A stretch of 64,000 bases of DNA from a virus (IMGVR_UViG_3300045988_110853:4077-68076); one strand, 5' to 3'; positions 31,564-32,271 are shown, counted from the first letter of the stretch. Numbers and translations are program-made. The notes: a model not told the origin generated them from the sequence alone.

Positions 31564-32271
31564 TTAAGACCTTGATCTTCCCGCTCCGCTTCTATTTGCG
31601 CTGTTAGGGCTATAAGCACCTCTATAAGAACAAGCTCTATAATTGCCTCTATGGCTACCATTATTAGACCCTCTATTACTTGTATAATAAGTATAATTAC
31701 TTGAATAATTAGAGCTATTATAAGCATTATTAGAGCTTCTATTAGAACCGTTATAAGCATTGTTAGAGCCTCGATGAGTTCCATCATAAGCATAATATCC
31801 ATTTCTATGGGAACCATCGTAACTAGCACGATAAGCGTTATTAGAAGATCTATAACTACCGTCATAACTACTATCATAGCCATAATTAGATGCTCTGTAA
31901 GTACCATTATAACTACCATCATAAGCATTATTAGAAGCTCTATAACTGCCATTGTAACTACCATCATAAGCGCAAACCGCGTTTACTTCTTCAAGCTTTG
32001 TCCTAATCTGTGATAATGGAGTATGTCTAGTTAGTTCATTTACTCTTGGGGCTGTAAAAGTGTCAAAAGTTGCTTTTGTACCAACATAAGATACATTTCT
32101 TAAATTTTCAATTTCGTTCTTTATTGTGATAACATCTCGCGCCCCAACTGCTTGTCTAGCTTTATCAGGGATAGCAGTTCTACGCTGAGAAAATCTCGTT
32201 TGTGCTGTATTTAAGTTATCATATAAAGCACGAACATCAGCCCATGAAATTCGACTTCCTGCTCCTGCCAT
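31564..32271 (-). CDS. tandem-repeat Tyr/Ser/Asn/Gly/Arg-rich protein; candidate modified-peptide precursor or substrate
   Basis: 235 aa; 110-aa N-terminal region then about 8 repeats of AYDGSYNGSYRASNN; immediately upstream and co-directional with rSAM genes. Confidence 0.5.
   Translation of the reverse strand: MAGAGSRISWADVRALYDNLNTAQTRFSQRRTAIPDKARQAVGARDVITIKNEIENLRNVSYVGTKATFDTFTAPRVNELTRHTPLSQIRTKLEEVNAVCAYDGSYNGSYRASNNAYDGSYNGTYRASNYGYDSSYDGSYRSSNNAYRASYDGSHRNGYYAYDGTHRGSNNAYNGSNRSSNNAYNSSNYSSNYTYYTSNRGSNNGSHRGNYRACSYRGAYSPNSANRSGAGRSRS
31600..31990. repeat. coding tandem repeats (about 45 bp unit) inside 31564-32271
   Basis: gtaactaccatcataagcattattagaagctctataact-like unit recurs about 8 times. 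Confidence 0.6.

Follow-up and report, generated by a model that had tools for sequence, protein, structure and literature searches.

A phage-borne gene module in which a tandem-repeat protein is the probable substrate of two adjacent radical SAM enzymes

Among the RiPPs, peptides that are made by ribosomes and modified after translation, long leaders are known from the proteusins, whose leaders are nitrile-hydratase-like, and from the Nif11-type peptides, and multi-core precursors are known from the fungal ustiloxin-type peptides and the plant burpitides. Here we compare these and two closer systems with a gene module found on a viral DNA stretch of 64,000 nucleotides (IMGVR_UViG_3300045988_110853:4077-68076; the whole stretch is referred to as the window). 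The module contains a gene for a 235-aa tandem-repeat protein, followed on the same strand by the genes of two radical S-adenosylmethionine (SAM) enzymes, rSAM1 and rSAM2. We consider it probable that the adjacent enzyme pair has the 235-aa protein as its dedicated substrate, in a phage-borne module for peptide or protein maturation. In architecture the HXS defence system and the triceptides come nearest to the module, and it is a member of neither; we count it among the radical SAM-matured repeat peptides or proteins, as a form not described before.

The HXS antiphage system consists of an effector with His-Xaa-Ser repeats (HxsA), the radical SAM enzymes HxsB and HxsC, and a small protein (HxsD); HxsA blocks phage DNA entry, its modification maps to SHRSS, and 99.7% of HXS systems are found in Pseudomonadota (PMC13128918). 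Both systems have two adjacent, dissimilar radical SAM enzymes with small accessory proteins, and a protein in which a non-repeat domain is joined to short Ser-rich repeats around an aromatic residue or His. The SHRSS site of HxsA also resembles SYRSS, THRGS and SHRGN in the tail of the repeat protein. However, rSAM2 scores 17.9 bits against HxsB, where the cutoff is 370, rSAM1 has no HxsC match at E<=0.1, the flanking small proteins do not match HxsD and the repeat protein does not match HxsA. Both the signal peptide and the peptidoglycan-binding domain are absent here, the repeats are built on Tyr and hold only 3 His, and the gene order is effector, rSAM, rSAM in place of D-B-C-A. The repeats are also many more in number, and there are extra enzymes, namely U32-like proteins, a family 2 glycosyltransferase (GT2) and a YcaO protein. 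In distribution, the present system is found in gut-metagenome phages, in one predicted Clostridiales prophage and on one contig of a Muribaculaceae metagenome-assembled genome (MAG).

Triceptides are three-residue cyclophane RiPPs made by rSAM/SPASM synthases such as XyeB, ChlB, HaaB and HtkB, and are defined by aromatic-X-X motifs (PMC11499958). The likeness lies in several candidate aromatic-X-X motifs within the putative precursor and an adjoining gene for an rSAM/SPASM maturase. The differences are that two rSAMs are always present here, that the leader is about 100 aa long and predicted to be folded, with no RiPP recognition element (RRE) detected, and that the motif is conserved no further than an aromatic residue amid small polar ones. 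No XyeB-, Grr- or Fxs-type model is among the NCBIfam matches of the rSAMs at E<=0.1. With the long-leader and multi-core RiPPs the repeat protein shares a leader-like domain that is large and structured, a core that is repetitive or hypervariable and a freely varying number of repeats, but its N-terminal domain is unrelated to their leaders (no Pfam or NCBIfam match), the enzyme set differs, and no leader protease or inter-unit cleavage sites were recognised here. Literature searches on phage RiPP and rSAM clusters returned no description of this system.

The repeat protein and the two radical SAM enzymes

The features on which the argument turns are as follows.

31564..32271, minus strand: repeat protein gene, ATG start, 235 aa, TAA stop
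31972..32271, minus strand: conserved N-terminal domain (residues 1-100), proposed recognition (leader-like) domain
31564..31971, minus strand: repeat tail (residues 101-235) and TAA stop, proposed multi-site core
30035..31537, minus strand: rSAM1, 500 aa, twitch-like C-terminal Cys set; TAG at 31463-31465 within CX3CX2C
28629..30035, minus strand: rSAM2, 468 aa, full 7-Cys SPASM; PHROG 1802
12207..12296, minus strand: tRNA with anticodon CTA, TAG suppressor of the phage (ARAGORN; 90 nt, long variable arm)

The repeat gene is preceded by a strong ribosome-binding site, an AGGAG Shine-Dalgarno sequence 8 nt 5' of the ATG. A sequence-only reading of the window had pointed to this open reading frame (ORF) and its tandem repeats, and both are present; in line with the roughly 8 repeats it claimed, we find about 6-8 units, and the N-terminal region that it put at 110 aa comes to about 100 aa, ending at the invariant Cys100. 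At the DNA level, Tandem Repeats Finder reports a 45-nt unit in 3.5 copies at 31813-31971 (score 192) and a 33-nt unit in 2.2 copies at 31720-31793. The protein has four units of 15 aa (AYDGSYNGSYRASNN, AYDGSYNGTYRASNY, GYDSSYDGSYRSSNN and AYRASYDGSHRNGYY) and two of 11 aa, the remainder being degenerate.

The 135 residues of the tail are drawn from only 11 residue types (S29 Y24 N23 G17 R14 A13 D6 T4 H3 C1 P1), of which 27 residues are aromatic or His, with a modal spacing of 4. Aromatic-to-aromatic spacings of exactly 4 occur 13 times, compared with a mean of 2.7 (sd 1.5, maximum 10) in 10,000 shuffles of the tail (p<1e-4). The repeats are real and non-random. Both Ser codon boxes are in use (AGY 15, TCN 14), which argues that the composition is kept at the protein level and is not only the result of recent DNA duplication. 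YD-, YN-, YR- and HR- triplets occur in the tail, as do five motifs of the form S/T-[Y/H]-R-x-[S/N] (SYRAS, TYRAS, SYRSS, THRGS and SHRGN); its net charge is +8, and it is predicted to be disordered (AlphaFold2 predicted local distance difference test (pLDDT) about 23). Two further readings of this DNA were set aside. An overlapping 163-aa ORF at 31476-31967 (MMVVTMAV...) is a frame artefact of the repeats, the conserved N-terminal domain being found only in the 235-aa frame, and to read the tail as mussel-adhesive-like or prion-like is unsupported, composition being the sole basis.

In the N-terminal domain, the invariant residues are W10, L20 N21 T22, F27, I54 E55, S61-Y-V-G-T65, A67, P75, L80 and C100. 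The AlphaFold2 model of the whole repeat protein is of low confidence (mean pLDDT 39.6), and a BFVD fold search with it gave nothing below E 0.085, a result that we leave uninterpreted. The protein has no match in Pfam, PHROGs or NCBIfam, and a profile of the N-terminal domain searched against the PDB returned noise only (best E 0.11). The N-terminus, MAGAGSRISWADV, is non-hydrophobic; a signal peptide is absent, and the Pfam and NCBIfam searches found no peptidoglycan-binding domain.

Among GenBank phages there is no match to the repeat protein, to rSAM1 or to 20 kb of the DNA. The 122 homologs of the repeat protein, of 153-277 aa, are all metagenomic, several of them from contigs of 190-200 kb, and the commonest lengths among close homologs (205, 220, 235 and 250 aa) differ by steps of one 15-aa unit. 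Searching with the N-terminal domain profile extends the family to 216 clusters at 50% identity, and every one of them has a repeat tail of the aromatic/Ser/Asn/Gly kind. Identity of the N-terminal domain between lineages falls as low as 19-32%. Averaged over the 216 clusters, the tails hold 19% S, 13% F, 12.5% N and 11% G, with medians of 23% aromatic residues and 53% S/N/G/T/A. The two residues after the aromatic position (X2 and X3) vary, the common part being an aromatic residue flanked by small polar ones, and tail charge varies as well (median -1, range -21 to +14). This combination of a conserved N-terminal domain with a hypervariable low-complexity tail, in which close strains differ by whole 15-aa units, amounts to a substrate-like anatomy. 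The longest member, of 671 aa, is encoded at 4485-6500 of the locus L009, and in its tail aromatic residues alternate by the hundred (FTFSGYTAAY..., GNRTFY...); this locus has a release-factor gene (PCRF/RF-1) at its start.

To read the enzymes correctly, the genetic code of the phage has to be taken into account. The window encodes an array of 20 tRNAs on the minus strand at 10855-22192 (ARAGORN), including the tRNA with anticodon CTA, and many minus-strand ORFs become longer when TAG is read through. TAG codons in the module genes are kept as TAG in relatives, and close relatives swap them only for CAG or CAA. From the CTA tRNA, the longer ORFs and these exchanges it follows that TAG is a sense codon in this phage, most likely for Gln. 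The array also holds a tRNA with anticodon TCA (10855-10934), which a TAG-read-through ORF of 676 aa at 9000-11030 overlaps, its start probably being over-extended, and one tRNA whose anticodon was left unresolved (22122-22192).

Translated from the ATG at 31537, rSAM1 begins MKKNTDIDIRAVTLVSSCGCNLHC, followed by the TAG and then YCMIENS..., which places the TAG inside a perfect CX3CX2C motif (CNLHC-TAG-YC). This TAG (31463-31465) is present in two independent IMG/VR assemblies and falls at a variable alignment position, occupied by K, N or E in homologs. In the alignment of the rSAM1 family (6 lineages), CNLxCxYC, WGQEPT and SYDG are invariant and three C-terminal Cys are conserved. With TAG read as Gln, rSAM1 reaches 32.7 bits against Pfam Radical_SAM (cutoff 29.5). 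The rSAM operon had earlier been taken to start at 31456, leaving a gap of 108 nt to the repeat gene; with the TAG read through, rSAM1 starts at 31537 and the gap is 26 nt. The inactive-looking rSAM that had been cast as a recognition partner was likewise an artefact of treating TAG as a stop, since the CX3CX2C motif is intact and family-invariant. Nor do the two enzymes appear as paralogs, as had been supposed: BLASTP detects no similarity between them. Stop-codon recoding had thus concealed the rSAM1 active site, and standard-code annotation would drop the iron-sulphur (Fe-S) motif; an expression construct built on 28629-31456 would remove it and give a false negative.

For rSAM2, the three Cys of CX3CX2C (C48, C52 and C55) are invariant across 120 homologs, as are C323, C341, C386, C389, C395, C399 and C418, which include a CX2CX5CX3C motif, although the match to the NCBIfam SPASM domain model is only 16.5 bits (cutoff 27). 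The family profile of rSAM2 matches three solved chains in the PDB at E<=0.01, two of the three being known peptide maturases: the thioether-forming CteB (5wgg, E 1.5e-4), aligned over the SPASM region, and the triceptide synthase ChlB (9gm3, E 0.01), in which only a 30-residue generic cluster motif is covered. These matches needed the profile, as single-sequence PDB searches with rSAM1 and with rSAM2 gave noise only. The NCBIfam matches of both rSAMs lie far under the family cutoffs (PapB, twitch rSAM, CbpB, HxsB, CXXX-repeat and nif11), and the weak matches of rSAM2 are almost all to peptide maturases (PapB, HxsB, CXXX-repeat and nif11). Both enzymes belong to the peptide-maturase part of the radical SAM superfamily, in no curated family.

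Conservation, duplication and exchange of the three genes

A total of 23 loci were fetched, of which 21 gave matches in a hidden Markov model (HMM) scan and 18 had enough downstream DNA. The repeat gene, rSAM1 and rSAM2 form a contiguous triad on one strand in every one of these 18, which extend to identities of about 25-30%. Entering instead through distant rSAM2 homologs (about 40% identity), the same triad is found on three unrelated contigs, with repeat proteins of 168, 238 and 671 aa that carry the N-terminal domain and aromatic repeats. Adjacency in related phages, to which the sequence-only reading had pointed as a check, is therefore invariant in these loci, and the same synteny came out against the refuting case that it had named, in which a surface or virion protein is kept without regard to the rSAM genes.

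The loci L005 and L006 carry a second, divergent triad of repeat protein, rSAM1 and rSAM2 directly after the first module (13378-16500), with several in-frame TAGs and a Ser/Asn/Gly/Thr/His-rich tail of NS[HYN]G-type repeats, which indicates that the three genes duplicate as a unit. The order and content of the accessory genes change between lineages: U32-like paralogs are found in all of them, a fusion of rSAM and GT2 in the module of 5 of 7, and YcaO in the clade of the window, in L003 and in the distant lineage L021.

Between about 38.8 and 32.8 kb the window and L003 share 97-100% identity, which falls abruptly to 57-76% across the whole module, the low identity continuing to at least 23.6 kb. 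The break (32790-32873) coincides with a pair of terminator-like and promoter-like sites. To judge from the alignment, the module is exchanged as one block between near-identical phages, and the break is a sharp recombination breakpoint. Block-wise replacement of this kind suggests diversifying pressure, as expected of a conflict system.

Taken together, the invariant triad, its duplication as a unit and its divergence as a block argue that the repeat protein is functionally coupled to the rSAM genes, most likely as their substrate. The earlier proposal that the repeat protein is an rSAM substrate is therefore retained as to the coupling, and the role it gave to an inactive rSAM partner is dropped.

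Proposed mechanism and competing explanations

In the mechanism that we propose, the minus-strand genes between about 32,858 and 22,270 would make up one operon, translatable only once the CTA suppressor tRNA is active. The helical N-terminal domain of about 100 residues would dock onto the enzymes in the manner of a long leader, and the disordered tail would offer many near-identical short sites, each an aromatic residue with Ser, Gly, Asn, Asp or Arg beside it. rSAM2, with its SPASM domain and two auxiliary clusters, and the twitch-like rSAM1 would modify these sites iteratively by radical chemistry, the products most plausibly being side-chain cross-links. Lineage-variable tailoring would come next, by U32-like Fe-S-type TIM barrels, the GT2 domain and YcaO. 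The gene with its repeats, its family, the invariant triad, the intact catalytic motifs and the co-divergence of the module are observed; the tail as substrate, the residues modified and the order of steps are inferred, and any particular chemistry is much less probable than the substrate relation itself.

Several points weigh against this reading. The modification of the tail is a prediction. The N-terminal domain model, of three long helices and one short, is of low confidence (AlphaFold2 pLDDT about 60), and a length of up to 671 aa, as in L009, is unusual for a peptide precursor. The recognised motif is hard to define: in the second L005 paralog Asn is frequently found at the aromatic position, so that aromatic-X-X may not be the recognised feature. 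Domain searches detected no RRE or PqqD domain in the module enzymes or small proteins of the phage, and no protease or transporter/exporter domain was found within 22270-32696. Phage gene order may also be conserved for reasons other than the pairing of substrate and enzyme.

A first alternative, possible though on balance rather unlikely, is that the mature product is a whole modified protein effector, as in HXS, which after site-specific rSAM maturation targets competing phages, host nucleic acid or the envelope. It draws on the common architecture, in which a repeat-bearing effector goes with small proteins and a pair of adjacent rSAMs, and on the modification of HxsA at SHRSS (PMC13128918), beside which stand the five motifs of the tail and its net charge of +8. 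HxsB is moreover the sole paired-rSAM model touched by rSAM2 (E 0.001), and a folded N-terminal domain with members of up to 671 aa would suit a protein product. On the other hand, the rSAM2 score is far below the HxsB cutoff and there is no match to HxsC, HxsA or HxsD, the signal peptide and the peptidoglycan-binding domain are missing, the gene order is effector-first, and the tail charge is not conserved across the family.

A broader scenario along the same lines is speculative and we regard it as unlikely. In it, large gut phages would carry a widespread, fast-diversifying and late-expressed maturation system as a phage counterpart of HXS, in which a folded head with a hypervariable aromatic/Ser/Asn repeat tail is cross-linked by the two rSAMs and then tailored anaerobically by the U32-like Fe-S TIM barrels (a new class of peptide-tailoring enzymes, possibly hydroxylases), to yield an effector or material in phage-phage or phage-host conflict.

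That the tail is a multi-core substrate of triceptide type, in which the synthase joins each aromatic ring to the C-beta two residues on, is a doubtful special case of the substrate reading. The dominant spacing of 4 between the tail aromatics is compatible with it, as are the YD-, YN-, YR- and HR- triplets, given that known synthases act on YDR, HAA and HTK (PMC11499958), and the rSAM2 profile does touch ChlB in the PDB. However, that match is restricted to the generic CX3CX2C segment, no curated triceptide-maturase model is reached at E<=0.1, two different rSAMs are invariably present, the residue after the aromatic varies across the family and one paralog frequently has Asn at the aromatic position.

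The last alternative would make the repeat protein and the enzymes independent of each other. E. coli-type YcaO and members of the U32 family are known to take part in modifying ribosomes, tRNA or quinones. Radical SAM enzymes of phages are also found in DNA hypermodification pathways (PMC8989533). It is nevertheless improbable that the repeat protein acts alone, as a structural, virion or condensate protein of low complexity (prion-like or adhesive), with the rSAMs acting on something else, such as a small molecule, tRNA or DNA, and the adjacency being inherited synteny: the tail is predicted to be disordered and is like Tyr/Ser/Asn/Gly/Arg low-complexity domains, the module adjoins the 20-tRNA array and the best NCBIfam match of the YcaO protein is the S12 accessory-factor model, but the triad stays contiguous amid rearranged surroundings and duplicates as a unit, divergence takes in the module as one block, PHROG, structural-protein and BFVD fold matches to the repeat protein are lacking, and a peptide-recognition domain is present in homologs of a partner enzyme.

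Should the tail be modified in the way that the substrate reading predicts, the 216 clusters would make up a large virus-encoded family of rSAM-matured repeat proteins, undescribed in the databases and papers searched. Phages would then be added to the known sources of heavily modified ribosomal products, U32-like proteins would be candidates for a part in peptide tailoring, and the recently described HXS defence effector would gain a natural comparison set.

Other genes of the module and its surroundings

With TAG read as Gln, the module occupies the minus strand between about 32.86 and 22.27 kb and comprises 11 genes. Its features, in addition to the triad, are given below.

32873-32844, minus strand: terminator-like hairpin (consensus scan; consensus match only)
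32858-32830, minus strand: promoter-like site, TTGACA-17-TATTAT with TG, directly after the hairpin (consensus match only)
32286..32696, minus strand: small protein of 136 aa, first module gene, one in-frame TAG; no family match
28310..28636, minus strand: small helical protein of 108 aa after rSAM2, possible accessory partner; no family match
27739..28320, minus strand: Cys-rich protein of 193 aa, five in-frame TAGs; homologs in the L003 and L008 modules
25713..27767, minus strand: radical SAM-GT2 glycosyltransferase fusion of 684 aa, eight in-frame TAGs; Pfam Radical_SAM 6.7e-8, Glycos_transf_2 7.4e-14
25541-25729, minus strand: TAG-containing protein of 62 aa, an ORF with TAG read through
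25051-25554, minus strand: TAG-containing protein of 167 aa, conserved in L001 and in the L003 clade
23162..24979, minus strand: YcaO-domain protein of 605 aa; Pfam YcaO 1.2e-27
22270..23148, minus strand: U32-like TIM-barrel protein of 292 aa; conserved C188-x3-C192, H198 and C218

The pair of hairpin and promoter at 32830..32873 is the putative start of the module transcription unit. A further promoter match, 12/12 and again by consensus only, lies at 22263-22235, after the last module gene and before the tRNA array. The CTA tRNA would be required to translate rSAM1 and most other module genes, and, going by what is established for recoded phages, expression of the module is therefore probably late.

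Of the small proteins, that of 136 aa is 40% identical in L003, whereas the flanking genes are 98-100% identical, and L008 and L010 have a small ORF directly 5' of the repeat gene that is alike in size and position. Homologs of the 108-aa protein are found by BLASTP at the equivalent position in L001-L003 and L005. L008-L010 have at this position a protein of 134-147 aa with an N-terminal motif common by eye and no BLAST match. The YcaO protein scores 83.4 bits against the NCBIfam YcaO-type kinase domain (TIGR00702, cutoff 75.65).

Among the members of the U32 family (peptidase U32 / Mk0906 fold) are the O2-independent hydroxylases UbiU/UbiV, TrhP and RlhA. The U32 TIM barrel is the best fold match of the 292-aa protein, which also has conserved Cys including a CX3C pair, although its sequence similarity to the family is sub-threshold (E 0.1). 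Two bacterial homologs of this protein carry an N-terminal PqqD, a peptide-recognition domain, and one of them adjoins a PqqD-rSAM-SPASM gene and small peptide ORFs, a neighbourhood typical of bacterial peptide-maturation clusters. On L011, a metagenome contig of 4.1 kb, a 40-aa Cys-containing peptide ORF, a PqqD-fused U32-like homolog and a PqqD-rSAM-SPASM gene are found together in a small cluster of the bacterial type. This cluster points to U32-like TIM barrels as a class of peptide-tailoring enzyme that has gone unrecognised; a literature search returned no paper substantively tying U32 proteins to peptide maturation.

In the region 5' of the module, two large minus-strand genes encode proteins of 476 aa (33195-34625) and 534 aa (37133-38737), the Cys-rich C-terminal halves of which are alike in kind, with many CxxC zinc-ribbon-like motifs; the 476-aa protein alone matches phrog_18912. 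The region also holds the gene of an M28/M20-like metallopeptidase with a C-terminal zinc-ribbon region (34496-35602, minus strand; phrog_34186 and phrog_4191), which is syntenic in the distant phage L009. This M28-like peptidase was considered as a leader protease and rejected, as it sits in the 97-100% identical flank, outside the co-diverging block. At 1-11030 and 13943-14800 the window encodes tail-fibre-like proteins with low-complexity Ser/Thr/Gly stretches, one of them with a minor-tail-protein PHROG match, and there is an endolysin-like gene.

A standard-code relative of the module (L008/L022) is found at about 87-106 kb of a 428-kb contig (JBNDKG010000001.1, GCA_050435405.1) of the isolate Clostridiales Family XIII bacterium PM5-7, in a predicted prophage for which the IMG/VR viral region is 113 kb; there it adjoins a terminase and a gene of the DAHP/KDO8P-synthase family. 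L023, the relative on the Muribaculaceae MAG contig, is a further one.

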